A stretch of 64,000 bases of DNA from Chiloscyllium plagiosum (Eukaryota): assembly GCF_004010195.1 (NCBI RefSeq), contig NC_057735.1:11349577-11413576 (forward strand), written 5' to 3'. A model generated the notes under the pieces. It searched no databases, was not told where the DNA came from, and saw only the letters and a program-made list of their open reading frames with translations. Of this stretch, positions 22,605 to 62,784 are shown piece after piece. Both the position numbers and the translations under genes were made by a program. Positions within the stretch are counted from its first letter, which is position 1, and each line of letters begins with the position of its first letter.

Positions 22605-22653
22605 ATGAAAATAATTGAATTTATTGTCATCCTAATTGCAGTTTCATTATCAG
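22605..22653 (+). CDS. Gene 2 signal-peptide (leader) exon MKIIEFIVILIAVSLS(G)
   Basis: ATG in aatcATGa context, hydrophobic core, strong phase-1 donor CAG|gtaagc. Splicing to 40628 gives MKIIEFIVILIAVSLSGSYG-VMAPNEV, a plausible cleavable signal peptide. Confidence 0.8.
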
Positions 22654-24359
22654 GTAAGCAAACAAATAGACTGAATCCAAATTGGAGATGTTACTTTATT
22701 AAATTTCTGTTTTAAATGCTATTTGGATTTGACAGAACATGTAATGTGTTATTGCCTGTAGCTAAATAGTAATGTGTGCATAAATCTTGATGCTTTCTAT
22801 AAAGTTTGATTTTCACAATACAGGAAGATATTCAGTAGATGGGAGAATATCATGCATATTAACAATTTGTTGTAGAAATGACAGTAATATTGGAACATTA
22901 GTGATTAAGATGTAATGAGAGTTCTCACTCAGAATATTGGGTTAATACAATTGTTAAAATAACTTTGAGAATGTGGTCAGCATTTACCAATTGCAAGTCA
23001 AAGACTCATTTCACAGAATTGTCACAGTGCAGATGGGGGCTTTTTTCTGGCTTTCTCGCCAAGGAGTTTATGGTCTATTATCTGTCAGCTTTATTCAGCA
23101 TGTCACTTAGTTTTTCTGTGAAAAATCTAATTAATGTGGTCATTACAAACTTTCTAAATCAACTACTGTTAAATCAAAAAGCCTTCTCATCTAATTTTTT
23201 AATGGTCTCTGCTTTCAAAGATTCTGCTGAATCTTCCCATTTCAGGAGGGATTGTAGGGGTTTTAAATGCAGCAGTTGATATGGTTCCATGGTATTTGAC
23301 TGCCAAGGGAGCAGGAAAATTTGGAATTTGGGTCAGGTTCTTGTTGCTCCAGCTTTTGCCACATGAGTGGAAAGCTCTGAGGGTCATCGGACCCAAAACA
23401 TTAACTCTGATTTCTCTTCACAGATGCTGCTAGACCCGCTGAGCTTTTCCAGCAATTTCTGTTTTTGTTTGAGAGGAACATTGAAGTTTGTCAGGAGGGG
23501 CAGAGCATTGAGCAGATCCTGTACCCGACCCTTCAAAGCGGGCCATCTCAGACGAAGATGTGACTGGTAACATGAACACATCTTTCCCAGCATTTTCCAA
23601 GCCCATGACCTCCATTATTTTGGAGGACAAAGACAGCAAAAGCAGGGGAACACCACTACCTGTAAGTTCTTCTCCTAGCCACACATTATTCTGACTTGGA
23701 GCAGTATTGCTGTTCCTTCAATGCTTCTGGGTCAAAATCCTGGATGTTCCTTCCTAACTGCTCTGCATGTGTACCCCTGTAGACTGAGGCAGTTCAGGAA
23801 GGCAGCTCACCACCACTGTCTCAATAGCAATTAGGGATGGGTAAGCAATGTGCTCCAGCAAGCTATATCTGCATCCCATCAAAGGATAATATAAAGAACC
23901 TACTACCGATGCTGCAATGTGTTATTTGAAGCAGAGCTGTTTTTCTGGAAGGTAGGGAAGAGAGTCATCAGTTGGCTAAGCTGCTGCAAGGAAAAGTGGG
24001 AAAGGAGATTACTCCTCAGATTTTATCTCCTGGGTCCAGGAATGTACTCTGCAGTTCAACAACAATGTCACAGTTTCCAGCCTTTCCTCCAATAAGATAC
24101 CCCAATTGGGTTGATAGAGACACAACACCCAACTATTCTGTGTAGTGTTGCTGGCCCATGGAATTCCAATGGTATCAAAGATATCACTAACAGGCTTTTG
24201 TTACAATGGAGGAAAGAAACTACATATTTTCAGCCCCAGTGATCTGGTACACAACAAATAAATGAAACCATTGGCAGATTATTGATAAATACACAAGCAT
24301 TTAGCAAATGACAATTAGCAATTTGATTTTAAATTGACCATATGCTTTAATAAAGTTCA

Positions 24360-24560
24360 AACGTGTGATGCTGGAAAAGAACAGCCGGTCAGGCAGCATC
24401 CGAGGAGCAAGAGAGTCAACATTTCGAGCATAAGCTCTTTAACAGGAAACTTGAAATGTCAACTCTCCTGCTCCTCGGATGCTGCTTGACCAGCTGCGCT
24501 TTTCCAGCACCACACTTACTGACTCTGACCTCCAGCATCTGCAGTCCTCACTTTCTCTGA
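24360..24560. repeat. Short fold-back repeat (PLE-terminus derived)
   Basis: Inverted arms of the family seen at 1-370. Other copies at 9975-10065, 21118-21245, 36930-37117 and 42430-42540. Confidence 0.7.
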
Positions 24561-25034
24561 TATGCTTTAATAGCACAGTCAGAAACTATTACAGCCAACT
24601 TTCACACAAAAAAAATGTACTAATAAGGAGCCATTGTCCACAAAGGGCTATAGACATCTCTTTCCATTGGAGAGATAAAATTGGTTATGCATGGTTAGGG
24701 CTGAGGAGACTGAAGGAAGACAGAATTGAGATGTATAAAATTATTAGTGGCATTGATGTGGTGGACAGGAAGGAACTTCTCCCCTTGGTAGAAGACCTGG
24801 GGCATAAATTTAAGGCATGGAGCAGGAGGTTCAAAGGAAATGTGAGGAATCTTTTTTCACCTAGAGGGTAGCGGGAAGTGAGAACTCACAGCCTGTAAAG
24901 GTAGTGGAAACAAAACCCTCATATCATTTAAGAAGTATTTAGATATGCACTTGTGATGCCAAGGCATACAAGACTATGAGCTAAATGGAATAAGAATACT
25001 TTATGGCTTGTGCAGACCCAATGAGTTGAAGCAA

Positions 25035-25265
25035 ATTCAGAAATTGCTGAAAAAACTCAGCAGGTATGGCAGCAGGTATGTAGAGAGAAATCAGAGTTAA
25101 TGTTTTGGTTCTGGTGACACTGCTTCAGAATTGGAGTGGTTCTGAAGAAGGGTTACCAGACTTAAAATGTTGACTCTGCTTTCTCTCCACAGATGCTGCC
25201 AGACTTGCTGAGGTTTTCCAGCAAGTTCTGATTTTTTTTTCTCACTTTCAGCATCCACTGTTCTT
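25035..25265. repeat. Short fold-back repeat inserted in a CR1 3' end
   Basis: Inverted arms with degenerate CTGAAGAAGGGTT core at ~25142. CR1 sequence on both sides (24690-25030 and 25280-25330). Confidence 0.7.
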
Positions 25266-26574
25266 TGGTGGTTTCTTATTTGATGGGCTGAAAGGTCTTT
25301 TTCTGTACTGTAAATCTCTACGACTCTACAAAGTCTTGAACTGCCACAGCCATTACAAGGATTGACAATGTACTGGACTGCATTCTATTCACATGGCCTA
25401 CTGAGCTAACCTTCATCCCCACTCATTGAAAACTAGAACTGAAGCTTCCACATGCACTACAACAAACTGCAGGGAAGAGAGCAGGACTCCATTCTGATCA
25501 TAACTTTGACAGTACATTTTATTAAATTTGGCAACATCATAAATTTTGGATTCATCACCCAACTGTAGGTGCCTCGAGAAAATTTCCTTGAGTCTGGCAA
25601 ACCTCATAGTGATGATCCTCCTACAGTCATGATGCATAGGAAATTCAAGTCATTGTCAATGCATGGCCATTTGTCTGAGACAAGGTGGTACATGACCTGT
25701 TGTTTCCATAACTCTTCTTGTAACTGTTGTGGTGTAAAGACGGATTATCAAACTAACTTAGTGAGCTGTTAGAGAGCAAGCTTCAAATAGTGCCTATGTT
25801 AGTGGTGGAAAATATGGATATTGAACCCAATGTTAGGGAAAGGCAAAGTCATTATAATCCCATGAGGCTGCTTTCAGGGGGAGACAACTAGTGGTGGGTT
25901 AACTTGAAGGTCCCCATGCCTCAGACAAGGGGAGAGGTTGAAGAAGGATAGTCCTTCATGATAACTTGAACCAGTGACAGGTATGAACCCACACTATCTG
26001 AAGTACTCTGCACTGAAAACCAACTATCCAGTCAACTGATCTAACTGACCCATGCACGAAGCAAGTTATCCCTTCCGTAGTATGGGGAGATTTCAAAACT
26101 AGGAAAGAGGAGAAAGATTTTAAAAAGACTTGAGAGACAATTTTTTTTTACACTGAGGGTGTTTTGCACGTGGAATGAACTTCCTGAGAAAGTGGTGGAT
26201 ATGGGTACAATTACAACTTTTAAAAGACATTTGGATAAATGTTTGAAAAGGAAAGGCTTGGAGGGATATGGGCCATGAGCAGACAGGTGGGATTAGTTTA
26301 TGGACTGGTTGGACCAAAGGGTCTGTTTCTGTGCTGTGTGACTCTATGACTCAAGGTCTCCATAATGTCAAGCTTGTTGTGTTACATACCCTTTGAGCAA
26401 CTAATGACAATTCCATCAGCTTCCTATCAGTCCGTAGAGTGCACAGAGGTCTTGAGGAAGTTAACAAGTGAACTACTTGTGGAATACACTCAGCCTTTGT
26501 CCTGCATTGGCGGCCACTCTGTCGAAGTGGATTGTATCGCTCCATTCTAATCAGTTGGATCACACATAGCTGAG

Positions 26575-29500
26575 TTTGTCAATAAATATGTAAGTTAGCT
26601 CGCTGAGCTTGAATGTTTGTTTTCAGATGGGGATGGGCATATGAATAGGAAGGGTTTGGAGGGATATGGGCCGGGTGCTGGCAGGTGGGACTAGATCTGG
26701 TCGGCATGGACGAGTTGGACCGAAGGGTCTGTTTCCATGCTGTACATCTCTATGACTCAATGACTATGTTTCGTCACCATACTGGGTAACATCATCAGTG
26801 AGAGCCTCTGGTGAAGCACTGGTGATATGTCCTGCCTCTCTATTTATAGGTCTTGGTTTCTTAAGATGGGTGATGTCATTTCCAATTCTCATTTTCAAGG
26901 GAAGGTAGATAGGGTTAAAATTGATGTGTTTATTGATGGAGTTCTGGTTAGAATGCCATGCCTCTAAGAATTCACGTGCGTGTCAGCACCCATCTTAAGA
27001 AACCAAGACCTATAAACAGAGAGGTGGGACATATCACCATAGTTTCACCGGAGTCTCACAGACAGAGTGCAGGAAATCCTCAAGGACGAAGGTGAAGAGC
27101 CAGAGGTGGTGATACATGTCGGCACAAATGACGTCGGCAAGAAGAGGAGGAACATACCACAGCGGGACTTCGGAGAACTAGGAAGAAGGCTGAAAAGCAG
27201 GACGTCCATGGTGGTTATCTCCGGTTTGCCTCCAGCTCCTCAGGCTGGTGAGGCCAGAAACAGGGAGATAATGGACTTGAACTTGTGGCTGGGGAGCTGG
27301 TGCAGGAAGCAAGGATTTAAATTCTTGGATCACTGGGGTATGTTTTGTGGTAAGCATAAATTATACAAGAGAGACGGTTTGCACCTTAATAGGTTAGGGA
27401 CCAGCATTCTGGCAGGCAGGTTTGCTACTGCAACACAGCTACGTTTAAACTAAGTAGAGGGGGGAAGGGGACAAACTGGATATTTAAGAAGGAAATTGAA
27501 GGGAAAGTTAGAAGGGAAGTCAAGAAAGACAACGGTATCAATGAGGCAGAAAACTCAGAAAGGGATCATGCTGTAAGGTTGAGTGAAATAGGAGTTGATG
27601 GGAAGGGTGAGGGCAGTAACAAATAAAAAATACTATACATGAATGCACGAAGCATTAGAAATAAGATGGATGAGCTTGAGGCTCTTTTGGAAATTGGCAG
27701 ATACGATATTGTGGGGATAACTGAGACGTGGTTTCAAGTGGACAGGGCCTGGGAAATGAATATTCAAGGCTACACGTGCTATTGTAAGGACAGACTGATG
27801 GGCAGAGGGGTTGGGGTTGGCCAGGTTGGTAAGGGATGATATTCAGTCCCTTGCGTGGGGGGACCTAGAATCAGGGGATGTAGAGTCAGTTAGGATAGAG
27901 CTGAGAAATATGAAGGGTAAAAAGACCCTTTTGGGAGTTACCTAGAGGCCCCCAAAAAGTAGTCTGGATGTCGGATGTAAGTTGAATCAGGAGCTGAAAT
28001 TGGCCTGTCGCAAAGATGTTACTACAGTTGTTATGGGGGATTTCAACATGCAGGTAGACTGGGAGAATCAGGATGGTATTGGACTTCAAGAAAGAGACTT
28101 TGTGGAGTGCCTCCGAGGTGGATTCTTGGAACAGCTGGTGCTGGAGCCGACCAGGGAGAAGGCAATTCTGGATCTGGTATTGTGCATCAGGGACCTCGAA
28201 GTGAAGGAGCCATTGGGATGTAATGACCATAATACAATAAGCTTCAATCTGCAATTTGAGAGGGAGAGAGTACAATCGGAAGTGACAATATTTGAATAAA
28301 GGGAACTATGGAGCTATGAGGGAGGAGCTGGCCAAAGTACAATGGTGCAATACCTTAGCAAGGATGACAGTGGAGGAACAATGGCGGATATTTCTGTGTA
28401 TAATGCAGAAGTTGCACCTTGAAGACAGAAACGGGAATATATTACGGGGAGCAAAGAAATGGCAGAAGAATTGAATTGGTACTTCAGATCTGTGTTCACT
28501 GGGGAAGACACAAGCAATCTCCCTGAGGTAACAGTGGCTGAAGGACCTGAACTTAAGGGAATTTATATTTGCCATGAATTGGTTTTGGAGAGACTGTTGG
28601 GTATGAAGGTTGTTATGTCTCCGGGGCCTGATGGTCTACATCCCAGGGTACTGAAGGAGGTGGCTCGAGAAATCGTGGATGCGTTGGTGATTATTTTCTA
28701 GAGTTCGATAGATTCGGGATCAGTTCCTGCGGATTGGAGAGTGGCTAATGTTGTACCACTTTTTAAGAAAGGTGGGAGAGAGAAAGCAGGAAATTATAGA
28801 CTAGTTAGTCTGACCTCAGAGGTGGGAAAGATGCTGGAGTCAGTTATAAAGGGTGAAATTACGACACATCTAAATAGTAGTAACAGGATAGGACAGAGTC
28901 AGCATGGATTTATGAAGGGGGAGTCATGCTTGACTAATCTTCTGGAATTTTTTGAGGATGTAACTCTGAAGATGGATGAGGGAGATCCAGTAGATGTAGT
29001 GTACCTGGACTTTCAGAAAGCTTTTGATAAAGTCCCACATAGGAGGTTAGTGAGCAAAATTAGGGCGCATGGTAATGGGGGCAAAGTACTAACTTGGACT
29101 GAAAGTTGGTTGGCTGATAGGAAACAAAGAGTAGTGATAAATGGCTCCCTTTCGGAATGGTAGGCAGTGACCAGTGAGGTACCACAGGGATCAGTACTGG
29201 GACCGCAGCTTTTTACAATATATGTTAATGGTATAGAAGATGGTATTAGTAATAACATTAGCAAATTTGCTGATGATACTAAGCTGGGTGGCAGGGTGAA
29301 ATGCGAGGAGGATGTTAGGAGATTACAGGGTGACCTGGACAGGTTAGGTGAGTGGTCAGGTGCATGGCAGATGCAGTTTAATGTGGATAAATGTATGGTT
29401 ATCCACTTTGGTGGCAAGAACAAGAAGGCAGATTACTACCTAACTGGAATCAATTTAGGTAAAGGGGCAGTACAAAGAAATCTGGTGTTCTTGTACACCA

Positions 29501-30270
29501 GTCAATGAAGGTAAGCATGCAGGTACAGCAGGTAGTGAAGAAGGCTAATAGCATGCTGGCCTTCATAACAAGAGGGATTGAGTATAGAAGCAAAGAGGTT
29601 CTTCTGCAGCCGTACAGGGCCCTGGTGAGACCACACCTGGAGTACTGTGTGCAGTTCTGGTCTCCAAATTTGAGGAAAGACATTCTGGCTATTGAGGGAG
29701 TGCAGCGTAGGTTCACGAGGTCAATTCCTGGAATGGCGGGACTACCTTACGCTGAAAGACTGGAGCGACCGGGCTTGTATACCCTTTTGAAGATTGAGAG
29801 GGGATATGATTGAGACATATAAGATTATTAAAGAATTGGACACTCAGAGGCAGGAAACATGTTTCAGCTGATGGGTGAGTGCCGAATGGTCTACCCCTTA
29901 AAAATACGGGGTAGACCATTTAGGACAGAGATGAGGAGAAACTTCTTCACCCAGAGAGTGGTGGCTGTGTGGAATGCTCTGCCCCGGAGGGCAGTGGAGG
30001 CCCAGTCTCTGGATTCATTTAAGAAAGATTTGGATGGAGCTCTCAAGGATAGTGGAATCAAGGGTTATGGAGATAAGGCAGGAACAGGATACTGATTAAG
30101 GATGATCAGCCATGATCATATTGAACGGTGGTGCAGGCTCGAAGGGCAGAATGGCCGACTCCTGCACCTATTGTCTATTGTCTATTGATGTTACCTAGTA
30201 TGGTGATGAAACATCTGAACACAAACCTTCAAGCTTATTGAGCTAAATTACGTACTTATCATCAACCTTC
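26575..30270. mobile_element. Second-family fold-back element with hammerhead motifs (probably Penelope-derived), split by two CR1 insertions
   Basis: 26575-26629 plus 26766-26875 is the reverse complement of 26985-27059 plus 30187-30270. Hammerhead core CTGATGA-T-GTTACC-cagtat-GGTGAC-GAAA on the minus strand at ~26768-26798. Confidence 0.65.
27060..30186 (+). mobile_element. CR1 LINE with ORF1 SGNH-esterase part and disrupted ORF2 (APE and RT)
   Basis: ORF1 has VIHVGTND...DGLHLN. ORF2 has [39 protein letters not shown] and KFADDTK. Tail (CTATTGT)n; internal deletion near 28415. Confidence 0.93.
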
Positions 30271-30974
30271 TCATAAAATGCTGAGTTTGTCAGTGTTAGG
30301 GAGGTGGTCAGCACCTTCCTATTGGCGATGCTCCATATGTGGTGCAAATGTTAACCTACTGTTCATTAACCCAAACATGAATGTTTCTGAGATGCGGCTT
30401 TAGGTATCATAAAAGTGTTGTGAATAAACATTCCCAATGTATGACGAAGAGAAGAGAGACTTATTTCTGACCTTCAGACAGAGACAGGATCATTGGTCAG
30501 GATGGTTGGGCCATATATGCTTTCTTGGCAATTCCTCTGGAGTGGGGAAGATGATTGACACAGAGTCCAAGAATAAGAAGAGAGAGAGAGAGAGATAGAG
30601 AGAAAGGAAGAAACAGGGGAGAGAAAGACAGAGGGAACCTGAAAGCAGCAGCATTGTACTAGCAAGATGTACAATAATTCGCCTCTAATTAGCATAACCA
30701 TTTTCTTTTGTCAAAATTGATTCTGGCCATCGGACAAATTTTCTTTTGTCTATCACTGACTTGTGTTTCCCAAGGAGCACGTGGTACTATATTTTCTGTA
30801 ATGCTGCCCTGATGCCAAGTTCAGCACCCTGGCTATTCAGCTCTTGTGCTGATGTCTCGGTCTGGGTGTCACAAAGACAGGAGCTGCACATTTATATGGC
30901 ATTGTAGGCACTCTTGTTACAGCTAACTTGTGAATGCTTTGCAATTTTTTTATATATATATATATATATAAATT

Positions 30975-32090
30975 TAACCCCCACACTACCGCCTAAGTGC
31001 GGTAGTGCTTATTTTTTCCCCAGCACCCATGGTGTGTGTGCAGGTGTGAGACACAGTGAGAGACACAAGGTGCACAAATCTTTATTCAACTTCTACCACC
31101 AGGAAGAAAGGAAACACCCGAGTGGCCAGTAACAAGCAGGGCCCTTTACATTGAAGGGCAATGCTGTGTGATCAAACAGTGAAGGGAAGGGCAGGGACTA
31201 AATCAAAATAGAGTTGGAGGGGGAAATAATGCACTCCACTCCCTGCGGCGCCGACCTCTCCCTGAACAACTCCAGGGTGTTGGTGGACACCGCGTGCTCC
31301 TTCTCCAAGGACACCTGGGCCCGAACATAACCGCGGAAGAGGGGCAGGCAGTCGGCCCTAACGACCCACTCCACGGCCCGCTGCCTCGACCTGTTTATGG
31401 CCAGTTTGGCCAGGCCCAGGAGCAGACCCACGAGGAGGTCTTCAGACCTGCCCTCCCTCCTCCGTACCGGGTGCCCAAAGATCAGGAGCGTGGGCCTGAA
31501 GTGCAACCAAAAGCAGAGGAGGAGGTTTTTGAGAAAATCAAAAAGGGAGTGCAAACGCCCACACCCAATATACACGTGATCCACGGACTCCACAGAACAA
31601 GCAGTTGTGCTGAGAGTCCTTGAACCACCGCAATCTACGGTTGCAGGGGACTGCTGCGTGCAGCACCCTCCACCCCAGATCCCGGAGAGAAAGGGGGAGG
31701 ACTCCCGCGTAGAGAGCCCTCCACTGGGGGTCCCCACCGCCCGGTGGCAAATGGGCACGCCAAGGCGTGTCCGGACGGTGGATGAGGGAGAAGAGGTGGA
31801 CGGTGTGCAGCAGCAGTCTATATAGGGCCCTCCGTTTTACATCCTTAAAAGGGACAAAATGAAAATTCCGGAGGTGGCTCAGGTTGTGAGGCACAGGCTC
31901 CCGCAGAGAAGTACGGGACCTTGGGGCCAATGTGAAATTCCGGCCGGGCTGGGGTGAGCGCGGACGGGATCCCACCGCACACCTGAGCATCCTCCAACTG
32001 GTGCACTACGTCGGGTCCGAACACCACCGTTTTAAGGCGTCGGATGGCGGTGGCCACGTACCGGACGCCTACTGCTGCGCTTTCCAATTT
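30975..32090 (-). mobile_element. Tx1-clade (L1-like) non-LTR retrotransposon 3' fragment, copy A
   Basis: ORF2 C-terminus LGWRVLHAAVPCN...CLFCG...ESVDHVYIGC (CCHC zinc knuckle)...LLGLAKLAI, followed by a 3' UTR with terminal hairpin CACTACCGC-ctaagt-GCGGTAGTG (30984-31007). Confidence 0.8.
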
Positions 32091-32109
32091 TAAATTCTGT
32101 CCGGGCTAC

Positions 32110-33127
32110 ACTCCTGTTTGTTTTTTTTTGTAGGGGAGGGTAGGGACTAAATCAAAACAGAATTGGAACACTCCTTTTTTTTTTTCTTTTATTAACCCCC
32201 ACACTACCACCTAAGTGCGGTAGTGCTTATTTTATCCCCAGCACCCATGGTGTGTGTGCAAGTGGGAGACACAGTGAAAGACACAAAGTGCACCAATATT
32301 TATTCAATTTCCACCACCAGAAAGATAGGAAAACACCCGGGTGGCCAGTGACAAACACTGCCCTTCACATCAAAGGGCAGTGCTGTGTGATCAAAACAGT
32401 GAAGGGGAGGGTAGGGACTAAATCAAAATAGAGTTGGAGGGAGAAGTGAAGCACTCCACTTTTTTTAAATTTAACCCCCACACTACCACCTAAGTGCAGT
32501 AGTGCCTATTTTTTCCCCCAGCACCCATGGTGTGTGTGTGCAGGGGTGAGACACAGTGAAAGACACAAAGTGCACAAATCTTTATTCAAATTCCACCACC
32601 AGGAACATTCCACGGACTCCACAGTGCCACAGAACAAGCAGTTGGGCTGGGAGTCCGTGAACCACCGCAATCTGCGGTTGCAGGGGGCTGCTGCGTGCAG
32701 CACCCTCCACCCCAGATCCCCGAGAGAAAGGGGGAGGACTCCCGCGTGGAGAGCCCTCCACTGGGGATCCCCACCGCCCGGTGGCAAATGGGCACGCCCA
32801 AGGCGTGTCCGGACATGGATGAGGGAGAAGAGGTGGACGGTGTGCAGCAGCAGTCTATATAGGGCCCGCCTTTTTACATCCTTAAAAGGGACAAAATGAA
32901 AATTCCGGAGGCGGCTCAGGTTGTGGGGCACAGGCTCCCGCGGGAAGTACGGGACCTTGGGGCCAATGTGAAATTCCGGCCGGGCTGAGGTGAGCGCGGA
33001 CGGGATCCCACCGCACACCTGAGCATCCTCCAACTGGTGCACTACGTCGGGTCCGAGCACCACCGTTTTAAGGCGTCGGATGGCGGTGGCCACGTACCGG
33101 ACGTCTACCGCTGCGTTTTCCAATTTT
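32110..33127 (-). mobile_element. Further Tx1-clade 3' fragments (short pieces 32132-32460; internally deleted copy C 32472-33127)
   Basis: Repeats of the same 3' UTR and hairpin, each with a T-run on the + strand. ORF 32506-33225 matches copy A, with a deletion junction at ~32605. Confidence 0.8.
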
Positions 33128-40627: not shown

Positions 40628-40957
40628 GATCATACGGAGTTATGGCACCAAATGAAGTGAACGGAAGGTTAGGAAGCTCCATCACTATCAACTGCCAGTA
40701 CAACATAGCAAGGAACAGAGATTCCGAGAAGTATTGGTGTAAGGGAAAGTGGAGATTTTCATGCACTATGTTGGCGTCCACTCAAAGAATGCAGCAGGAA
40801 AGACCCAGTAGACTGTTTATTATGGACAATCAAACCAATGGGGTATTTTCAGTAACAATGCAGCAATTATCGCTGGAAGATGCAGGATGGTATTGGTGTG
40901 GGATAATAAAGGAGGGCACTGATGAAATGGCTGATGTTAAATTGAATGTTCTCCAAG
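40628..40957 (+). CDS. Gene 2 Ig V domain D1 (CD300/pIgR-like)
   Basis: Acceptor tttctttctgccctgacag and donor CAAG|gtaagc; 330 nt, phase 1-1. GSSITINCQY...EKYWCKGKWRFSC...EDAGWYWCG with the C-x7-C pair. Confidence 0.93.
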
Positions 40958-46865: not shown

Positions 46866-49326
46866 CAAAATTAACTTGTCCTTTTCTCAAAGGAGAGAAA
46901 AGAGTAACAAAGGCTGTAACCAGCCAGTGAAACCATCACCCCCTAATGAGAACTGAATTACACTTGAAACATTATGTGCATCAGGAGTTTAACAATCAGC
47001 CCTCACTAAAAAGAATGCCAGTTACCTGGCTAATTCAGCCAGTCCAGGAACCAGGTTTTCCCCTCCCTAAAAAGGGAAGCAGAAACTAACAGTAACATAC
47101 TGACTGTAGCCCAGCCAGCATAGAGTCAGTCCCCTAAACTGAGGGGACTCTGAATCTCCTGTTTATAATATTTTATTAAACAAATTAAAAACAGTTAACA
47201 TTTACAGCTGTTTACCACAGCATTTTTACAAGGGAGAGCAGCAGCAAAGCCAGGCCCCAAACCCTACCATTCAACCAGTTTACAGGAATGGAGGACAAAC
47301 CACAAATCCCAGTTTCAAATATAAAGAGACAGCAACAATGACCTTTATACATAAGACAATCCAGTTACATAAGTGCAGACAATACAGACCCAGCAAACCC
47401 CCATCCCTCCCACCTTCTGGCCACTCTTAGACAGCCTACCCCTACATGCCTTCTGGCTCTCGATCCACCCTATGCCCCTTCCAGTTCTCAGCCTGCCCTA
47501 GTACCCACCCAGGGTGGGAGTGGTCAGGATGGCCTACCCACCTTCACTAACCACCCTCAGCACCTTTCAACCACCTCTGGGGCAGCCCACCCCAGTACCT
47601 GCCCAGGGTGACATGCTGAGGACAGCTACCCACCTTCTGGCTCTCGGTCTGTCCCTACATACCATTTGTCTCACCCACCCTGATGCACCACTGGCCTATC
47701 CTGGCACATCTTCCAGCCACCTCTAGGACAGCTCATCCTTCCCTGGGAAAACAACGTGCAAGGTAGCCCAGACGCCTTCTGGATCTCAGCCCACCCCTAC
47801 ACACCACCTGGTGCTTGGCTGCTCTGACATCTTTCGACCACCTCTAGGACAGCCCTTCCCGATTACCCCTTAGAACAGCTTACCCACCATCTGGCTCTTG
47901 GGACAACTGGCATCAGGGTGGCCTACCCACCCTCTGGCTTTCAGGACAGACTACCAACCTTCAGGTTCACAGAATGGCCTACCCACCCTTCAGCTCTCGG
48001 GGTGAGCTTTCAGGATGACCCATGAGCCTCCCAGCTCACAGTAAGGCCTGCCAGACCCAGGGACACAAGACAGTGCAGGTGATAGACCCAGGAACCACCA
48101 CAATACAGTTAATTACCAAAAACAAAGAAAGCCCTTTCTGGTACAAAGTCAAAATATCAAGTCCATTTCCAGGAAGAGTCCACTCCAATATACAATGTGC
48201 ATTGCCAGAAATAGAGTCCATTGCCAAAACAGAGTCCACAACCAAGGGCAGAGTCCACTCCTGAAGGCAGCAAATGCACACCCCACAGGTGTGCAGTCCC
48301 CATGGAGTCCTAGCCCAGCCTTGGAAAGCCAGGCCCACTCTGGAACAGTGCATTATACAGGTGCAGTTAACATACAGGTTTGGTCCACTCCCAAAGGAAA
48401 GGTGTTCTTGCAAACTCCAGGATACAGCAAGTGCCCTCCTCCCAGCACACACAGGTGTTCAATCTTCAGAGGCCCAGTCCCAGGCCTCCCCACAGGAATA
48501 GCTCCTCTGCTAGAGTGTCTTCCACAAGAGCTCAGTCCAAACACCAATAAAAAAGTGAAGACATACAAAAAAAGAAAGCTAGAGTCCAAGGGCTTATTAT
48601 CCTTTTCTCAAAAAGAGTAAAAAGAGAAACATAAAGGCTGTAACCAGCCAGTGAAACAACAATCCCCTAATGAGAATTGAGCTACACCTGAAACACTATG
48701 TGCATCAGGAGTTTAACACTGTCATCCCTAAAAGGAATAAAAAAGTGAAGACATACAAAAAAAGAAAGCTAGAGTCCAAGGGCTTATTATCCTTTTCTCA
48801 AAAAGAGTAAAAAGAGAAACAAAGGCTGTAACCAGCCAGTGAAACAACAATCCCCTAATGAGAATTGAGCTACACCTGAAACACTATGTGCATCAGGAGT
48901 TTAACACTGTCATCCCTAAAAGGAATACCAGTTAACAAACTGGCTAAATAATTCAGCCAGCTCAGGAACCAGATTTCCACCCCAGAAAAAAGGAAGCCAA
49001 AACCAACAGTAACATACTGACTGTAGCCCAACCAACATAGAGTCAGTCCCCAAAACTCTGAATCTCCTGCTTATTTTTTATTTTTTTTTATTTTATTAAA
49101 CAAGTTACAAAACAGTTTACAAAAAACATTGACAGCTGTACACAAAAGACAGCAGTTTTACAAGGGAGGGGAGCAGCAAAGCTAGGCCCCGAACCCTACC
49201 GTTCAACCATTTTACAGGGAGAGGAGGACAAACCTCAAATCCCAGTTCCATGTGTGACAAGACAGTGACAATGACATTTATACATTAGACAATACCGTTA
49301 CATACAAAAGTGCAGACAATACAGAC

Positions 49327-50144
49327 NNNNNNNNNNNNNNNNNNNNNNNNNNNNNNNNNNNNNNNNNNNNNNNNNNNNNNNNNNNNNNNNNNNNNNNNNN
49401 NNNNNNNNNNNNNNNNNNNNNNNNNNNNNNNNNNNNNNNNNNNNNNNNNNNNNNNNNNNNNNNNNNNNNNNNNNNNNNNNNNNNNNNNNNNNNNNNNNNN
49501 NNNNNNNNNNNNNNNNNNNNNNNNNNNNNNNNNNNNNNNNNNNNNNNNNNNNNNNNNNNNNNNNNNNNNNNNNNNNNNNNNNNNNNNNNNNNNNNNNNNN
49601 NNNNNNNNNNNNNNNNNNNNNNNNNNNNNNNNNNNNNNNNNNNNNNNNNNNNNNNNNNNNNNNNNNNNNNNNNNNNNNNNNNNNNNNNNNNNNNNNNNNN
49701 NNNNNNNNNNNNNNNNNNNNNNNNNNNNNNNNNNNNNNNNNNNNNNNNNNNNNNNNNNNNNNNNNNNNNNNNNNNNNNNNNNNNNNNNNNNNNNNNNNNN
49801 NNNNNNNNNNNNNNNNNNNNNNNNNNNNNNNNNNNNNNNNNNNNNNNNNNNNNNNNNNNNNNNNNNNNNNNNNNNNNNNNNNNNNNNNNNNNNNNNNNNN
49901 NNNNNNNNNNNNNNNNNNNNNNNNNNNNNNNNNNNNNNNNNNNNNNNNNNNNNNNNNNNNNNNNNNNNNNNNNNNNNNNNNNNNNNNNNNNNNNNNNNNN
50001 NNNNNNNNNNNNNNNNNNNNNNNNNNNNNNNNNNNNNNNNNNNNNNNNNNNNNNNNNNNNNNNNNNNNNNNNNNNNNNNNNNNNNNNNNNNNNNNNNNNN
50101 NNNNNNNNNNNNNNNNNNNNNNNNNNNNNNNNNNNNNNNNNNNN
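49327..50144. other. Assembly gap (a second gap is at 11108-11239)
   Basis: Runs of N. Confidence 1.
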
Positions 50145-50419
50145 TTCTCAGAAAGAGGAGAGCGTAACACACAGGCTGTAACCAACCAGTGAAACAACAA
50201 CCCCCTAATGAGAACTGAGTTACACCTGAAACACATTATGTGCATCAGGAGTTTAACAAATCAGTCCTCACTAAAAGGAATGCCAGTTAACAAACTGGCT
50301 AAATAATTCAGCCAGTTCAGGAACCAGATTTCCACCCCAGAAAAAAGGAAGCCAAAACCAACAGTAACATACTGACTGTAGCCCAACCAACATAGAGTCA
50401 GTCCCCAAAACTCTGAATC

Positions 50420-50510
50420 TCCTGCTTATATCAGTCACTCAGTGCTCCCTGATTGGCCCAGGTTAACAACCCCAATCAACCCCAATGAGATCCACCTGGT
50501 TCCAATCGCC
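50420..50510 (-). promoter_or_regulatory. CCAAT plus TATA promoter-like (LTR-type) segment at the head of the array, antisense to gene 2
   Basis: Minus strand reads GGGCCAATCAGGGAGCACTGAGTGACTGATATAAGCAGGAG; CCAAT at 50452-50456 and TATAA at 50426-50430. Confidence 0.5.
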
Positions 50511-50526
50511 ATAATAACTAACTTGA

Positions 50527-50632
50527 TACCGCACTTAGGTGGTAGTGTGAGGGTTAAAAAAAAGTAAAAAAGAAAAAAAAAGAAAAAAAATTAAACAGAA
50601 AAAAAAGGGAAAAAAAATAAAATAAAAAATAA
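50527..50632 (+). mobile_element. Extreme 3' end of the Tx1-clade element with long A-rich tail
   Basis: taccgcacttaggtggtagtgtgagggtt matches the terminus at 32192-32225 (reverse complement) and is followed by about 75 nt of A-rich sequence. Confidence 0.75.
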
Positions 50633-51260
50633 ACAGGAGAAAACGGATTAAACAGAGGATTTAAATACAGACAACGGATTAACAAACCTTTCTGCTTTGA
50701 GATGCCATCTTACTGTTGTTTATTGACTGGCTCCTGTATTCCATCAATGTTGTGTTCCAGTCTGCGATGGGATTCAGCTGACACCAGACTTGGGCACAGT
50801 GCCCTCTTGTGTCAGTCTGTCTGTAATTCCAGTGTTCAGTTTGAACATCATACAAGAAAAAAAAAGGAAAAAAAAGAAAGAAAAAAAAATAACTAACTTG
50901 ATATTTGCATATACTGTCATCTGCTGAGCATTTCCAGGATTTTCTATTTTAGGAAAGAAGTGAACTGTTTTGACCAGAAGCAAAATAAATTATTTAATAC
51001 TGTGCATAAGATTTTTGTTTAACTGGTAAAGCCAATAAGAACTTGAACAATCTTGGAAAAAAATAATTTTAATCATTGGTGGAACAAAAGGAATGAATGA
51101 CGGGAATAATTACCTTCAGATAACCAATATGGGAATGATTGGCTATATTATTCACTTCCTGTGCTATAAATTTCCTAGATTCTGCAATACTTGTCACTGT
51201 TTTACTAACATGTATTCTGCTTGATGTTAAGTGGTTATATATTGTTCTTTATTCTTGCAG

Positions 51261-51584
51261 CTGGATTGACTGGGCTAAGACAAGTGTATGGAACTTTAGG
51301 AGATGGTGTCACTGTTGAATGCCAGTATCAAGTGCCATATTACAAGAGCCATGGAAAATACCTGTGTAAGGGTTCAGAGAGGAAATCGTGTATTGTGATA
51401 GCTAGAACTCAAAAACAGAATGCAAACAGCAGTGGAAGGATATCAGCTGTGGATAACCAGAACAGTGGAGTGTTTGCAGTGACCATTACCCAATTAACGA
51501 TGGAGGATGAGGGACTCTACTGGTGTGGAATCACAATGTTTGGATATGACAGAATGGATCCTTTACAACTGAACATTTTTGAAC
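51261..51584 (+). CDS. Gene 2 Ig V domain D2 (CD300/pIgR-like)
   Basis: TACTAAC branch-point match at 51203-51209, acceptor tttattcttgcag, donor GAAC|gtaaga; 324 nt, phase 1-1. VTVECQY...KYLCKGSERKSC...EDEGLYWCG. Placed in gene 2 because no TM or leader exon was found between D1 and D2. Confidence 0.9.
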
Positions 51585-54500
51585 GTAAGATACATGTTGA
51601 ATTCTTCTTATAGAGTCAAAGAGATGTACAGCACGGAAACAGACCCTTCGGTCCAACTCATCCATGCCGATCAGAAATCCTAACCTGATCTAGTTCCATT
51701 TGCCAGTATTTGGCCCATATCCCTCTAAACCCTTTCTATTCATATACCCATCCAGATGCCTATTAAATGTTGGAATTGTCCCAGCCTCCACCACATCCTC
51801 TGGCAGCTCATTCCATACACGTACCACCCTCTGCTTGAAAAGGGTGCCACTGAAGTCCCTTTTATATCTTTCTCCTCTCACCCTGAAGCTATGCCCTCTC
51901 GTTCTGGACTCCCACCCCAGGGAAAAGACCTTGTCTGTTTACCCTATCTGTACCCCTCATAATTTTATAAACCTCTATAAGGTCACCGCTCAGCCTCCAA
52001 CACTCTAGGAAAGCAGTTTCTACATATGTAAAGTACTAGATATTCTGCTGAGAATAATGGTTGGAACAGATATTATTTGTTTGTAATTAATCTGTTGAGA
52101 TTTTGTGCCAGAAAATGGATCTACTGGGCTCTGTCTCAGTCACGAGCAAACACCATGTTCTGTCTAGTGAGTCAGGCATGACGTAGAAGCAGAGAAAGAG
52201 GCCAATGTTCTTCTCCCTACCCCAAGCCTTGGACCCGATAATGCTTTTCTTATCAGCAAAATCTAGGCAGGGTGTGTCCGGAATGCGTAAAATAGCTTCC
52301 CAAACATTACATGAGCTATATCTCCACAGAGACTAGCTGTTGATGCAATTTGAGTCTTATAACGCAATGACCGATGAGGAAAGTGCCCCAGTGGCACCAA
52401 AGTTCAAAAGGAGAACAAAAAGCCAAACTCATTTATTTCTTTATTAATAGTTTATAAGCTTTGACAGCAAGGTGAGTATTTATTTCCCATCTCACATTGC
52501 CCTTGCGAAGCTGGTAGTGAGACACTTCCCTGTAATGTGACAATCCGAATGGTATAGGTACACACACAGTGCCATTGGAGAAGGAATTTCAAAGGTTTGA
52601 TCCAGTGACAGTGAAGGAATTGTGATATAGTTTCAAGTCAGGATGGTGTGTGTTTTCAGTTAAGAGTCAATCATTTCATTGTAGGTCTGGACACATAGGT
52701 AGACCAGACCAAGTAAGGAGAGCAGATTTCTTGCCTAAAGGGATATTAGTGATGGGTTTTTACAACAAGGCTACCATTATGCTATCATCCTGACTTGGAA
52801 TTACATCCTCATTCCTTCGGTGTCACTGGGTCAAATCCTGGAGTTCCTTTCCTCCTGGCATTGTGGGTCAATTTACAGCACATGGATTGTCGCGGTTAAA
52901 AGTAGCAGCTCACACTACCTGCTCAAGAGGCTTAGGGCAATAAATACTGGCCAGCCAGCAACCTCCACATCGCACAAGTGAAAATGAAGACTGTAAAGAT
53001 TTCAGATTTCAATTCTTGCCGTTGTGGGATTGTGAAGCTATGTCTCCGGCATATCAGGCTTGGTGTCTGGATTATTAATCCAGCAATATTGGCACTACAT
53101 GAGCACCTCTCCAGTACCACAAAAATTGATTATCTTAAAGATAGAAAAAATGTCCCAAGGTTGTACAGAGGAGCGTAACCATATAAATGTTGGCAGCATA
53201 CAGATGCTGGAGTGTAATGTCGACACAACTAAAGTAGAAGCAGACTTTGTCACCAAGTTATATATTACAACAAGTGGCTACAGGTTTGATCAGAGGCAGA
53301 TTTGAAGGAGCATCTGCAAGGGAGAGAGAAAAGTGGAAGGTTTTAAGGGTAGGATTGTAGAGGGTAAGCTCTTGGCAGTTGAGGACACCATTGCCAAAGA
53401 TGGCGTGGGTATAGCTCTCAGATTTTAGGAAGGAATGAAGCACAATTGCCTGAGAGATGTTCTTTTAAGGCCACTGTTCAGATAACCTGTTAGGACAAAT
53501 GGGAACATTGCTTACCCTGTTTCATGTGCTGAATGTTTGACACGAAGATACTTGACAAGAGGAGAAGTATTTATTTCTACAATACCTCGCTGTAGTTAGA
53601 AGTGTCTCTGCTGATGTAAACAATCTGGCAGATGACTTTACTTCGCAGACTGGCTTAATTGCAATTTTGGACAATCTCATTTCCTTAACTTATCCTCCTC
53701 AAAATTACTTTAAAATGGCAAAATGATCAGTACTCTAGTTAGTTTGTAATCAATGTCATTTGGTGTGAATTTTACTAATACACTTGTCTCATATTTAGTA
53801 TCTAATATCGCTGGGTTCTTCACCCATGCCAGAAGTGTAGCAGAGTGGGATGCAGAGTGACAATGTCTGACTAATGATGTTTCTCCTAAATACTTTATTG
53901 CATTTTTTTCTGACGACCTTAGATTAATGGCCCTTATTTGTGGACTTTTCCACAAATGGAAATACTTTCTCCACTTTTATTTGATAAAACACCTTTGTAG
54001 TTTGAAAGAAAAATTTGAATTGAGTAAATATTTATGTTAAGTATAGAACAGACTGGGGATTTTTTTTAGCTGAAGGTTTAATACTTAAATTGAATTAATT
54101 TCCTTTAAAGTTCAAGCTAACAATCTTATCTATTTTGTCATTACGATCAGGTGTATGATAATGTATAACTGACATGAGGATGTAGGCATTGTCAGATCCT
54201 TATGGCTTTAATGTAATTTAGCATGAATTCTGCACAGGGAGTCATCACAATCAAATCTGCAATGATTTACAGCTAAATTGTTAATTAATTTGGCACCATT
54301 CGCATTTGTCGCTGACACTTTTCAACTGTTTGTTATTTGAAGGATCCACTGAAGTGTACATCAGACATGGTTTCTTCAGTTATCCTGAAGACTATAGAGT
54401 AAAAGTAAAATTCAATCTAAATCAAATGCAGGCACAACATTGCTGCAAACCAAATCAAGTATGAACAACATTATTTTTCCAAACTTCTTGCTGGTGATCC

Positions 54501-55347
54501 CACCATCAAAACAAAAATGATTTTGAAAAGCCGTATTCTCCTTTTTGAGAAATGTGGGCTTAACCACCACCTTCTCAAGAACAATTAAGGATGGACAACC
54601 ATAACACCCATATCCTGAGAAAGAATGAATAAAAATGAATATTTGCTCCACCCAATTTTATTTTTTGCTTTTAGTTAATAAATAAAATGTACAAACACAG
54701 GGAGAAATCATCCACTAGAGAAGACAAACTTGGAATGTCTCATAATCTGAGGAGCATCCCTGTGAATCACTATGCTAGCAGGCTGTCATAAAAATTCCAG
54801 CTGGTTATAATTGACATACCAAAGAGGACAAAGCACTGGTTTTAGTGATTTTGCAATATGACAGGAAATAGAAATAGGAGAAAGTGAGGACTGCAGATGC
54901 TGGTGATCAGAGTCAAAAAAGTGTGGCACTGGAAAAGCACAGCAAGTCAGACAGCATCCGAGGTTCAGGAAAGTCAACACTGCAGACATAAATCCTTCGT
55001 CAGGCACATTCCTAATGAATGGCTTATCCTTGAAACATCAACTCTCTTGCTCCTTGGATGCTGCCTGACCTGCTGTGATTTTCCAGTGCCACACTATTTG
55101 ACTCAGGAAATAGAAACAGATATATAACGAGCAATAATTTAATATCAGAATCTGAGCTGCGATAGCGCGTAAATAGGAGGCAATCTAATTTGATCTTATC
55201 AAAGTATAAAAGCAATGAAATACAATAAGCACTCAGAATGATCATCGACCTAATTTCAGTCAATCCACGCGCTTCACAAAAATGGTTCAGATGGTAGTCT
55301 CACTTAGATAAGAAAATGAATGAAAAAACCACAGACACCATATACCC

Positions 55348-55580
55348 CTTGGTTTAACTCAGCTGGCTGGACAGTTGGTTTGAGAAGCACTGTAATGCCA
55401 ACTGTTTGGGTTCAGTTGAGATGATTGCCAAACACCAGTTGAGATGATTGCCACGACGGTCTCTACTTTTGAACCTTTCCCCTCGCCTGAGGCCTCAGTT
55501 TAAATCACCATCAGTTGTCTCTGTCTCTCTCTGTAATGAAAGACCATCCCTCCAGTCAGGCAGGACTATGGCAACTTGAC
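55348..55580 (+). mobile_element. Second SINE family (tRNA-like head); reverse copies at 2610-2810, 4420-4560 and 25850-26052
   Basis: Shared cccctcgcctgagg...ttaaa(t/c)cacca core and gactatggcaactt 3' end across four dispersed copies. Confidence 0.6.
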
Positions 55581-55984
55581 TTGATACCAAACATGAGGGC
55601 CCCACAGGAAGTCAACTAACAGGGCACTGATACCTCAATTTGGAGAGAGGACACTACTGGGTAGACCAAGTACAGTTGCTAGAATAGTCAGAATTCACAA
55701 AAACTAAACAACAGGCTCTGAAAAACAATAGAGACAAAAATCTGTAGATGCTGGAACCCAAGGTAGACAAGCAGGAGACCGGAAGAACACAACAATCCAG
55801 GCAGCATCAGGAAGTGGAGGAGTCGACGTTTCAGGTATAATCCTTCTTCCAGACTTCAAAAAACAATAGGCATCCAACAAGTTAATTCCCTTCTGCCTGC
55901 TACTTGTTGTTAGATTAAACAACAGTGGGTAATGGGGGATCACGGTTCTTTCAAATACAAAGCTCAGGTACCCACTGGATTGGA

Positions 55985-57922
55985 ACAAACAACAAAGAAA
56001 ATTTACAGCCCACGAACAGGCCCTTCAGCCCTCCAAGCCTGGGCCGATCCAAATGTTACTGTCTAAATCTGTTGGTCAATTCCTAAGCATTGTATCCCTC
56101 TGCTCCCCATCTACTCATGCATCTGTCCAGACGCATCTTAAATGATTCTGGATTAGTGGTGCTGGAAGAGCACAGCAGTTCAGGCAGCATCCAAGGAGCA
56201 GCGAAATCGACGTTTCGGGCAAAAGCCCTTCATCTGGAATAAAGGCAGAGAGTCTGAAGCGTGGAGAATTAAGCTAGAGGAGGGTGGGGGTGGGGAGAAA
56301 GTAGCATAGAGTACAATAGGTGAGTGGGGGAGGGGATAAAGGTGATAGGTCAGGGAGGAGAGGGTGGAGTGGATAGGTGGAAAAGGAGATAGGCAGGTAG
56401 GACAAGTCCGGACAAGTCATGGGGACAGTGCTGAGCTTCCAGGCGTCTGGTGGTGAGGGAGCGTCGGTGGAGTAGGCCCAGCACCTCCATATCCTCGGTA
56501 GAGTGGGAGGGGGAGTTGAAATGTTGAGCCACTGGGCGATTTGGTTGATTGATGCGGGTGTCTCTGGGATGTTCCCTAAGGCGCTCTGCTAGGAGGCGCC
56601 CAGTCTCCCCGGTGTAGATGAGACCGCATCGGGAGCAACGGATACAATAAATGATATTAGTGGATGTGCAGGTAAAACTTTGATGGATGTGGAAGGCTCC
56701 TTTAGGGCCTTGGATAGAGGTGAGGGAGGAGGTGTGGGCGCAGGTTTTACAGTTCCTGCAGTGGCAGGGGAAAGTGCAGGATGGGAGGGTGGGTTGTAGG
56801 GGGGCGTGGACCTGACCAGGTAGGCACGGAGGGAATGGTTTTTGCGGAAGGCGGAAAGGGGTGGGGAGGGAAATATATCCCTGGTGCTGGGGTCTGTTTG
56901 GAGGTGGCGGAAATGTCGACGGATGATTTGGTTTATGCGAAGGTTGGTAGCGTGGAAGGTAAGCACCAGGGGTGTTCTGTCCTTGTTACTGTTGGAGGGG
57001 TGGGGTCTGAGGGCGGAGGTGCGGGATGTGGACGAGATGCATTGGAGGGCATCTTTAACCATGTGGGAAGGGTCTCTAAAGAAGGAGGCCATCTGGTGTG
57101 TTCTGTGGTGGAACTGGTCCTCCTGGGAGCAGATATGGCGGAGGCAGAGGAATTGGGAATACAGGATGGCATTTTTGCAGGAGGTAGTGTGGGAAGAGAT
57201 GTAATCCAGGTAGCTGTAGGAGTCAGTGGGTTTGTAAAAAATGTCAGTGTCAAGTCGGTCGTCATTAATGGAGATAGAGAGGTCCAGGAAGGGGACGGAG
57301 CGTCTACCACCTCTGCTGGCAATGCATTCCAAATGCCCACCACCCTCTGTGTGAAGTACTTGCCGCGTGTATCCCCCTTAAACCTTCCATCTATCACCGT
57401 GAAAGTATGACCTCTCGTTATTGAATCCTTACCCTGGGAAAAGGCTTGTCTCTATCCACCCTGTCTATACCCTTTATGACTTTGTAAACCTCAATCAGGT
57501 CTGCCCTCAATCTCCTTTTTTCTAGTGAAAATAAACCGAATCTACTCAACCTCTCGTCATTGCTAGCACCTTCCATACCAAGCAACATCCTCGTAAACCT
57601 TCTCTGCACCCGCTCCAAAGCATCCACATCCTTTTGGTAATGTGGCGACCAGAACTGTACACAGTATTCTAAATGCGGCCGAACCAATGTCTTGTACAAT
57701 TTTAACATGACCTGCCAGCTCTTATACTCAATACCCCGTCCGATGAAGGCAAACATACTATATGCCTTCTTGACCACTCTATCCACCTGTGCAGCAACCT
57801 TCAGGGTACAATGGACCTGCACTTCCAGATCTCTCTGCTCATCAACTTTTCCCAAGGCTCTTCCATTCATTGTATAATTCGCTCTATAATTAGACTTGCC
57901 TAAATGCATCATCTCGCATTTG
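55985..57922 (-). mobile_element. CR1 3' fragment split by the Penelope insertion
   Basis: ORF 57418-57912 has KLYKTLVRPHLEYCVQFWSP. The 3' UTR and tail are at 55985-56144. Confidence 0.9.
56145..57295 (-). mobile_element. Penelope-like element fragment (RT C-terminal region, GIY-YIG and terminus) inserted in a CR1
   Basis: ORF 56589-57332 contains FLDLSISI...DIFYKPTD...YLDYISSH...KNAILYSQFL...ICS (PLE RT C-terminus). ORF 56350-56532 contains HFNSPSHS. Confidence 0.85.
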
Positions 57923-57999
57923 GACTAGATGTTGTGTATGGGAAATCTGTAGCTGGAGATCTGCTATTCCACTGTTATTATCTGTTACTGTTTTTACAG

Positions 58000-58060
58000 C
58001 TCTTACAACAACAGCACTGCCTGAAGAATCTCAGATAGGAATGGGCTTCAAAAATGAAAG
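58000..58060 (+). CDS. Gene 2 stalk exon (PLTTTALPEESQIGMGFKNE)
   Basis: Acceptor tgttactgtttttacag and donor GAAAG|gtatct; 61 nt, phase 1-2 as expected before a TM exon; Thr/Pro-rich start; lies in unique sequence between repeats. Confidence 0.7.
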
Positions 58061-62570: not shown

Positions 62571-62784
62571 ATAAAAGATTTGACGAGACAAGGTAGATGC
62601 ATTTACGTCTTAACAGCCTGAGGTCTCCATATCACTTGCTTTTCCCAAGATCAAGACTTCAAACGTTGCATGCATATGATTTCTTTCTGGTCTGCTGAAG
62701 AATGGAGTCAGGAGATTTAGGAAGACTAATTCATTGTGGGCTAATGCTTGCAGTACCTGCTTTCTCTTGCTCCATCCCAAGGGT

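Follow-up and report, generated by a model that had tools for sequence, protein, structure and literature searches.

Structure and transcript of a two-domain receptor gene

The DNA considered here is a 64,000-nucleotide stretch of the shark Chiloscyllium plagiosum (the window; contig C26:11,349,577-11,413,576 of a 3.56-Gb genome), and our subject is a receptor gene on its plus strand whose seven exons, separated by introns that are all GT-AG, give an open reading frame (ORF) of 350 amino acids that reads leader, two immunoglobulin (Ig) V-set domains (D1 and D2), stalk, transmembrane (TM) segment and tail. An earlier note, made from the letters of the window, had described the leader-D1-D2-stalk part and had pointed to a partial match between D1 and the loop, resembling complementarity-determining region 1 (CDR1), of the receptor for polymeric Ig (pIgR) and FCAMR. 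Our results indicate that this is a real and conserved gene, already annotated automatically, that belongs to a known group of receptors and is not a pIgR, with IgM binding as a candidate function. The features of the gene are as follows, in window numbering that is continued into C26 past position 64000.

22605..22653, plus strand: exon 1, signal peptide, phase 1; in three runs the upstream loose end of the D1 contigs coincides with its 3' end
40628..40957, plus strand: exon 2, V-set domain D1 with an extra C-x7-C disulfide motif; V-set E value 2.8e-16, AlphaFold pLDDT 91.3
40693..40740, plus strand: D1 B-C loop (CDR1-like), CQYNIARNRDSEKYWC; N-R at 40714-40719; 40726-40728 is the Glu that aligns with pIgR Arg34
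51261..51584, plus strand: exon 3, V-set domain D2, 41% identity to D1; in three runs the downstream loose end of the D1 contigs coincides with its 5' start
58000..58060, plus strand: exon 4, short stalk, phase 2; placed by splice sites and frame
58061..64000, plus strand: intron 4, which leaves the window; three further exons lie past the window end
71280-71386, plus strand, beyond the window: TM exon, no charged residue
73644-73699, plus strand, beyond the window: tail exon, overlapping NPxY and YxxPhi (NPVYNDM)
78303-78428, plus strand, beyond the window: last exon, ITYDM, FPTYI, stop

The leader, D1, D2 and stalk exons are in frame with AG/GT boundaries, in agreement with the gene first described, and the TM exon that had been expected beyond position 64000 was located together with two tail exons when the following 200 kb were searched with orthologues (tblastn). 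Contigs from three of four sequencing runs, representing three studies, cover the D1 exon exactly, with loose ends that coincide with the leader exon's 3' end on one side and the 5' start of D2 on the other; these contigs lack the intervening 18-kb and 10-kb introns, and the runs are presumed to be RNA (the fourth, an approximately 2% sample of a single-cell run, contributed 0 reads). Because the contig ends match the leader and D2, D1 and D2 share one spliced transcript and are one gene, which removes the possibility, held open until now, that they belong to separate genes. The predicted splicing of D2 to the stalk, TM segment and tail follows from splice sites, reading frame and orthologues.

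There are three V-type exons in the window. The receptor gene encodes a type I membrane protein with one exon per domain and lies in a tandem cluster, as expected of the group related to CD300, TREM and pIgR; the extra C-x6-9-C disulfide after K-Y-W is present in KYWCKGKWRFSC and KYLCKGSERKSC, in agreement with the Pfam V-set match and the fold. Two V domains are found in the complete 350-residue ORF, not the four or five of a tetrapod pIgR, and the linker from D2 to the TM segment is about 25 residues, with no long FCAMR-like mucin stalk after the Ig domains.

Orthologues in cartilaginous fish

The D1-D2-stalk-TM-tail unit is present in eight other sharks, making nine in total: C. punctatum, whose protein is 92% identical to the window gene product, Stegostoma, Rhincodon, Cetorhinus, two Scyliorhinus species, Mustelus and Heptranchias. 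These nine sharks cover both shark superorders. In seven of the eight orthologues the database model runs together with an adjacent gene, and several models have been named "polymeric immunoglobulin receptor-like" automatically. We therefore rejected a shark pIgR of three to five domains as suggested by database proteins of 638-766 amino acids, since these are neighbour-gene fusions with internal leaders, TM segments and tails. At window positions 22455-22604, the 150 bases 5' of the leader ATG are open and lie behind a possible splice acceptor, and this region joins the upstream gene to the receptor gene in the database models of three sharks; the fusion is probably an annotation artefact.

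One catshark model has a duplicated D2. The four ray proteins retrieved hold D2-type domains only, and the N-R loop is missing from two chimaera proteins. Two or more Ig domains also occur in turtle and paddlefish CMRF35-like proteins, in sturgeon pIgR-like proteins and in one rodent model, so that having two Ig domains is not distinctive of the shark gene.

Phylogeny and fold

The domain phylogeny that the earlier note had called for places D1 on the CD300 side, with a strength that depends on the rows included. The main tree comprised 70 rows and 117 columns, without FCMR, TREM, MDIR or true teleost pIgR sequences; its teleost rows were pIgR-like and CMRF35-like proteins. In it the shark D1s form one clade (99/95*) that joins shark D2s, ray domains and the domains of one chimaera protein (91/91, unstarred), and the tetrapod pIgR/FCAMR D1s form a clade of their own (95/98*) among other pIgR domains. 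Forcing shark D1 together with tetrapod D1 cost 20.9 log-likelihood units in this tree, with p = 0.077 in the approximately unbiased (AU) test. In a reduced tree of 50 rows, from which 20 that were long or redundant had been removed (the outgroup among them), a starred branch (98/96*) parts 34 shark, CD300 and ray-finned rows from 16 pIgR, FCAMR and coelacanth rows, and the AU test rejects the same constraint (p = 0.015). In neither tree does D1 fall within the tetrapod pIgR/FCAMR D1 clade.

Pairwise comparisons gave a similar ranking. After the eight orthologous D1s, the best single-domain matches of D1 are three D2s at 109-111 bits, and the frog and bird pIgR/FCAMR-type D1s shown score 53-62 bits; among PDB sequences, CD300lf matches D1 with 83.6 bits versus 54.6 bits for isolated pIgR D1. 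In a Foldseek search with the AlphaFold model of D1 (14 rows), CD300lf takes ranks 1-9 (40-42% identity, TM-score up to 0.89) and is followed by pIgR (30-35%), with small gaps in TM-score. D1 and D2 are presumably the products of a duplication within cartilaginous fish.

The CDR1-like loop of D1

The D1 loop reads CQYNIARNRDSEKYWC, and the other two V domains of the window read CSFDTYFQNYQKYWC and CQYQVPYYKSHGKYLC, which bears out that D1 alone among the window's Ig domains has the N-R pair. The spacing is C-x11-K in shark D1 versus C-x12-K in human pIgR D1, one residue shorter as had been described, with D-S-E in place of H-T-R, and a helical turn is predicted in the loop at D1 residues 26-29 of the AlphaFold model. 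Across the nine sharks, N and R are each present in 8/9, the following D/N in 9/9 and the E before KYWC in 9/9. At least eight of the nine sharks agree at 63 of 110 D1 columns, and by that measure the N-R pair is not unusually conserved relative to the rest of D1.

To place this match, we searched 1.84 billion proteins and used 148 of the best 150 hits, two shark orthologues being excluded; these supplied a library of 383 family domains whose loop could be read. Of the 383, 230 have Y and 23 have N at position -5 before K-x-[WFLY]-C, and N-[RK] at -5/-4 occurs in 18, of which 15 are tetrapod pIgR/FCAMR D1-type domains, one is a shark orthologue and two are others. The 15 were classed as D1-type by motif, so that the count is partly circular; they include three proteins named "polymeric immunoglobulin receptor(-like)" and two more that are unnamed or generic. 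Outside the D1-type, N-[RK] is thus found in 2 of about 364 domains, or about 0.5% per domain, and we estimate the chance of meeting it somewhere in a cluster of about 20 domains at the order of 5-10%. The partial match is real, uncommon and more than routine, yet within reach of chance in a 20-domain cluster. Among 18 aligned domains from the same genome, N-R is found in D1 only, and one paralogue (L003) has N-Q.

In human secretory IgM, the D1 side chains R31, H32, R34, Y55, N97 and R99 touch the J chain and Fc, according to the available text of the structural report (bioRxiv 2020.09.10.291138). Only R31 of these six side-chain contacts is kept in the D1 of the window. The full pattern of C-x12/13-K with N-[RK]-[HY]-x-R plus the CDR2 and CDR3 contacts was not found, shark D1 having C-x11-K and N-R-[DN]-x-E. 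The E at the pIgR Arg34 position is shared by the majority of shark D2s, by ray domains and by 31 of the 383 library domains, and K stands at the pIgR R99 position in four of the nine sharks.

Shark IgM and J chain at the contact sites

The R34 of human pIgR D1 forms a salt bridge with E468 of IgM, as described in the text available from the same report. Shark and human Cmu4 align without gaps at this site, and R stands at position 468 in 14 of the 15 IgM-type copies read; 21 loci were examined, 5 had no match to the search pattern, and one locus, taken for IgNAR, has N at this position. With E at position 34 of D1 in all nine sharks, this Glu and IgM Arg468 constitute a reciprocal charge swap, which fits IgM binding without demonstrating it, as the Glu is not specific to D1.

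The J-chain gene lies at C32:3,419,380-3,426,977 (L136, L137), and its candidate last exon was identified from where it lies and from its Cys pattern, with no PDB match. This exon ends without YPD, the C-terminal residues of the J chain that, in the accessible part of another report, are engaged by R31 and H32 of pIgR D1 (PMC10680632). The elasmobranch J chain is described, in the portion of text available, as having a unique C terminus, with polymerisation as the only function given (PMC10801876).

Transmembrane segment and tail

The TM segment has no charged residue. NPxY is present in six of nine sharks and in one ray, YxxPhi at the NPxY tyrosine in seven of nine, and YD[MIV] in all nine. 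A canonical immunoreceptor tyrosine-based inhibitory motif (ITIM; S-x-Y-x-x-L at the first tyrosine) is found in two catsharks only; the window gene has neither the ITIM-bearing tail nor the charged TM residue of mammalian CD300 proper. The flanking genes end in motifs of the VTYxTV, IEYSTI and VEYAAL type, that is, in tyrosines of the ITIM or immunoreceptor tyrosine-based switch motif (ITSM) type, unlike the receptor gene. The juxtamembrane motif of pIgR, S-[IV]-[GR]-SYRT, is absent from the shark tail and present in three of four tetrapod sequences checked. As a separate observation, the five proteins that end at the stop of the last exon (L030, about 14.4 kb past the window) all end in [DE]-x-[IV] (ESI, EPI, EAI, DPV, DPV), which we take to be a possible PDZ-binding end.

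Chromosomal setting of the cluster

Of 62 candidates in a genome search with D1, 28 were matches. The main cluster, at C26:11.02-11.57 Mb, holds 20 of them; another 3 lie at C26:7.45-7.54 Mb, 3 are on unplaced contigs, and C14 has 2, which are presumably TIM-like by their motif. The main cluster lies between a contactin, for which CNTN2 is the best PDB match (116.8 versus 98.1 bits), and an AHCYL1/2-type gene and an AMP deaminase (AMPD). The same contig carries an IL10-family exon at 17.36 Mb, C1orf116 at 18.11 Mb, NFYA at 9.43 Mb and a FOXP gene at 0.97 Mb. Tetrapods keep FCMR, PIGR and FCAMR between IL10 and C1orf116, and the shark receptor gene is about 6 Mb from that interval. A profile search of the 800 kb from IL10 to C1orf116 (26,133 six-frame fragments; 21,583 N) found no family domain (best E 0.63); the same profile scores about 61-82 bits on frog and bird pIgR/FCAMR-type D1s.

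The mammalian CD300 locus adjoins RAB37 and NHERF1. Hits to EBP50_C (NHERF) are on C24 and C21 only, and none of the 28 D1 matches is there (three being on unplaced contigs); the mammalian CD300 setting is thus not seen by EBP50_C, RAB37 not having been searched for. Since the cluster is away from the EBP50_C chromosomes, it is not a plain counterpart of the mammalian CD300 locus. Around the human TREM cluster, NFYA and a FOXP gene are close neighbours. An assignment of the shark cluster to the TREM locus was not supported: NFYA and the FOXP hit are at 9.43 and 0.97 Mb, which puts them 8.5 Mb apart on C26, and the genes that border the cluster are CNTN2 and AHCYL/AMPD. The synteny comparison asked for at the outset therefore places the cluster on a chromosome that carries genes marking the PIGR and TREM regions in human, in neither of these two slots and not beside an NHERF gene.

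Neighbouring genes and other features of the cluster

Upstream of the receptor gene is a one-domain receptor gene with its own stop, which is conserved in sharks and rays.

~830-17052, plus strand: upstream one-domain receptor gene, with VTYATV and IEYSTI motifs
~830-1165, plus strand: its V exon
1461-1499, plus strand: its short exon
5340-5441, plus strand: its TM exon
9526 and 16864-17052, plus strand: its tail exons

A likeness of its domain to human TMIGD3 could not be shown, searches having given named cartilaginous-fish hits, one unnamed protein and hits with generic names, and nothing that bore on TMIGD3. At the end of the cluster (C26:11,563,274-11,571,381; L026, L043-L044) is a divergent two-domain receptor with exons about 0.7 kb apart, whose D1 is without the B-strand Cys and whose tail has tyrosines of the ITIM/ITSM type. 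In the tree the D2 of this receptor groups with the pIgR side (99/97*), though its branch is long (2.35), and the AU test (p = 0.42) does not force it inside the pIgR group, so that we regard this position as a lead.

A sub-family of related domains is split between C26:11.02-11.27 Mb and 7.45-7.54 Mb, about 3.5 Mb apart, and several of its members have stops or truncations (L020, L021, L022, L024, L025). Birth-and-death expansion could account for the split, as could an inversion or a mis-join. By eye, an open frame resembling a retroelement integrase lies just upstream of the cluster (C26:11,008,945-11,010,153), and introns of the window (e.g., 10869-13097, 27043-29813 and 56589-57924) are filled with broken fragments of reverse transcriptase and endonuclease of the long interspersed nuclear element (LINE) type. 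Outside sharks, the TM segment and tail of a coelacanth "pIgR" (P0035) match Pfam RHEX/DUF4692 with 38.7 bits, above the curated cut-off. This match suggests that human RHEX, which we take to be an Ig-less adaptor, may descend from a two-Ig-domain receptor of the group related to CD300 and pIgR.

Interpretation

We lean, with restrained confidence, toward a shark receptor of the CD300/MDIR-like kind that captures and internalises its ligand and that carries a convergent pIgR-like loop. D1 and D2 would capture a ligand at the cell surface, and the NPxY/YxxPhi tail would bring the bound ligand inside via clathrin adaptors; the capture-and-internalise role is proposed because both motifs are clathrin-adaptor sorting signals, and we infer from them that the tail drives endocytosis. 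The N-R loop would have arisen by convergence. CD300-type ligands are lipids and dead-cell or microbial surfaces, and a ligand of this type would be likelier than J-chain-bound polymeric Ig. As judged from these sequences, the gene appears not to be a pIgR orthologue, with its position on the CD300 side of the tree, its location outside the PIGR slot, the difference at five of six contacts and the lack of a pIgR tail motif. This upholds the caution with which the pIgR likeness was first put forward; the suggestion of an ancestral-type receptor fares worse, as the sisters of D1 are its own D2 and domains of rays and a chimaera, on the CD300 side of a starred branch, and no such domain was found in the PIGR slot (800 kb, 21.6 kb of it N). 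Several observations weigh against the capture-and-internalise reading: the AU test with 70 rows does not reject a union of shark D1 with tetrapod D1, and the trees rest on only 117 columns; N and R are each kept in eight of nine sharks, and N-[RK] is rare outside Ig-binding D1s; NPxY is missing in three of nine sharks; and the cluster shares its chromosome with IL10, C1orf116, NFYA and FOXP and not with the EBP50_C hits.

Some of these same observations would be expected of a convergent shark IgM Fc receptor, in which D1 grips Cmu4 and the tailpiece in the fashion of pIgR and FCAMR and the NPxY tail moves the complex into or across cells, an explanation that we consider rather unlikely. The rare N-[RK] is in the N-terminal domain and conserved among the nine sharks, the D1 Glu at the R34 position stands opposite the IgM Arg at the E468 position, a K is found at the R99 position in some sharks, and the lack of an ITIM and the uncharged TM segment resemble pIgR, FCAMR and FCMR. 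However, the Glu is shared with D2s, ray domains and library domains, H32, Y55 and N97 are lost, and the YPD partner of R31 and H32 is absent from the candidate last J-chain exon (itself unconfirmed); a unique C terminus and a polymerisation-only function are given for the elasmobranch J chain. The four ray proteins retrieved also hold only the D2 type, although rays make IgM. Were this explanation correct, which again strikes us as improbable, the gene would be the first cartilaginous-fish IgM Fc receptor, with an independent version of the pIgR/FCAMR docking, a reversed salt bridge (receptor Glu, IgM Arg468), uptake or transport through NPxY and no tetrapod-type J-chain contact.

Less likely still is a signalling receptor of the CD300/MDIR cluster, in which three phosphorylated tail tyrosines bind SH2 or PTB adaptors and modulate leukocyte activation and any uptake is incidental. 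The gene is a member of a tandem cluster of ITIM/ITSM-bearing receptors, its invariant YD[MIV] exceeds NPxY in conservation, and two catsharks have the canonical S-x-Y-x-x-L; against this, the other seven sharks have no canonical ITIM at the first tyrosine, the invariant tyrosine is without the hydrophobic +3 residue of the ITIM type, and the uncharged TM segment offers nothing for an adaptor with an immunoreceptor tyrosine-based activation motif (ITAM). We give very little credence to true orthology with tetrapod pIgR/FCAMR, or to direct ancestry of them, by which the gene would have moved from the IL10-C1orf116 interval and would retain a degenerate CDR1. Its location about 6 Mb from IL10 and C1orf116 on their chromosome and next to CNTN2, the absence of a competing orthologue from the expected slot and the AU result with all rows would fit such a displacement, but the AU result without the long rows and the starred branch that parts D1 from the pIgR domains, the closeness of D1 to its own D2 type, the missing tail motif and the loop shorter by one residue all argue against it.

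Shark pIgR-like genes may already be discussed in Flowers 2021. The titles and abstracts searched held no description of the shark gene, and Flowers 2021 and Cannon 2006 were outside that scope, so that absence from print is not established. In its available text, a 2014 survey reports shark genomes to be without PIGR homologues (PMC4016189), and a 2026 review, likewise as far as its accessible text goes, has cartilaginous fish without PIGR and all classical Fc receptors and asks how Ig reaches secretions (PMC13337447). In this assembly, no such domain occupies the tetrapod PIGR slot, the database entries for shark "pIgR-like" proteins that we examined are receptors of the CD300 side, mostly in fused gene models, and their cluster sits on the chromosome that carries IL10, C1orf116, CNTN2 and NFYA. 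The N-R pair and the Glu/Arg swap provide residue-level predictions for the candidate IgM binding: if it is true, Fc-mu recognition evolved twice and exists in sharks, and if it is not, the gene is a further orphan receptor in a group already known.

Comparison with known receptor systems

Teleost two-domain pIgR and pIgRL share the two V domains, and the teleost pIgR ectodomain 5f1s matches at 34%; the teleost rows of the trees were pIgR-like and CMRF35-like proteins, not true teleost pIgR. With tetrapod pIgR/FCAMR the shark gene has in common the N-R at the same spacing from KYWC, the N-terminal position and predicted helical turn of the loop, the lack of an ITIM or charged TM segment, and IL10 and C1orf116 on the same chromosome. 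Unlike them, its D1 has only about 33% identity, falls in a separate clade and has the shortened loop with most contacts changed, and the gene has two domains, a short stalk and no SYRT tail motif and lies outside the IL10-C1orf116 interval. Tetrapod pIgR is a receptor for J-chain polymeric Ig, which it carries across epithelia by transcytosis, and cleavage turns it into secretory component.

The skate MDIRs are described, in the text available, as cartilaginous-fish multigene receptors similar to CD300, TREM and pIgR (PMC3031540), and a preprint on NILTs reports, in its accessible part, that the homology signal between NILTs and the human CD300, TREM and pIgR families is eroded. The shark gene likewise belongs to a cartilaginous-fish multigene family and is like the MDIRs as these are described, and the ray proteins retrieved differ from it in being without the D1 type. 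It differs from the CD300/CMRF35-like receptors, whose mammalian members have one domain and bind lipids (phosphatidylserine, phosphatidylethanolamine and ceramide), in its two domains, in the N-R that replaces the family's usual aromatic at -5, in having no canonical ITIM or charged TM segment, and in a cluster off the chromosomes with EBP50_C/NHERF hits. It is like them in the V-set K-Y-W-C-x7-C, in about 41% identity to CD300lf/CLM-1, the nearest solved structure, in its place on the same side of the tree and in its tandem gene cluster.

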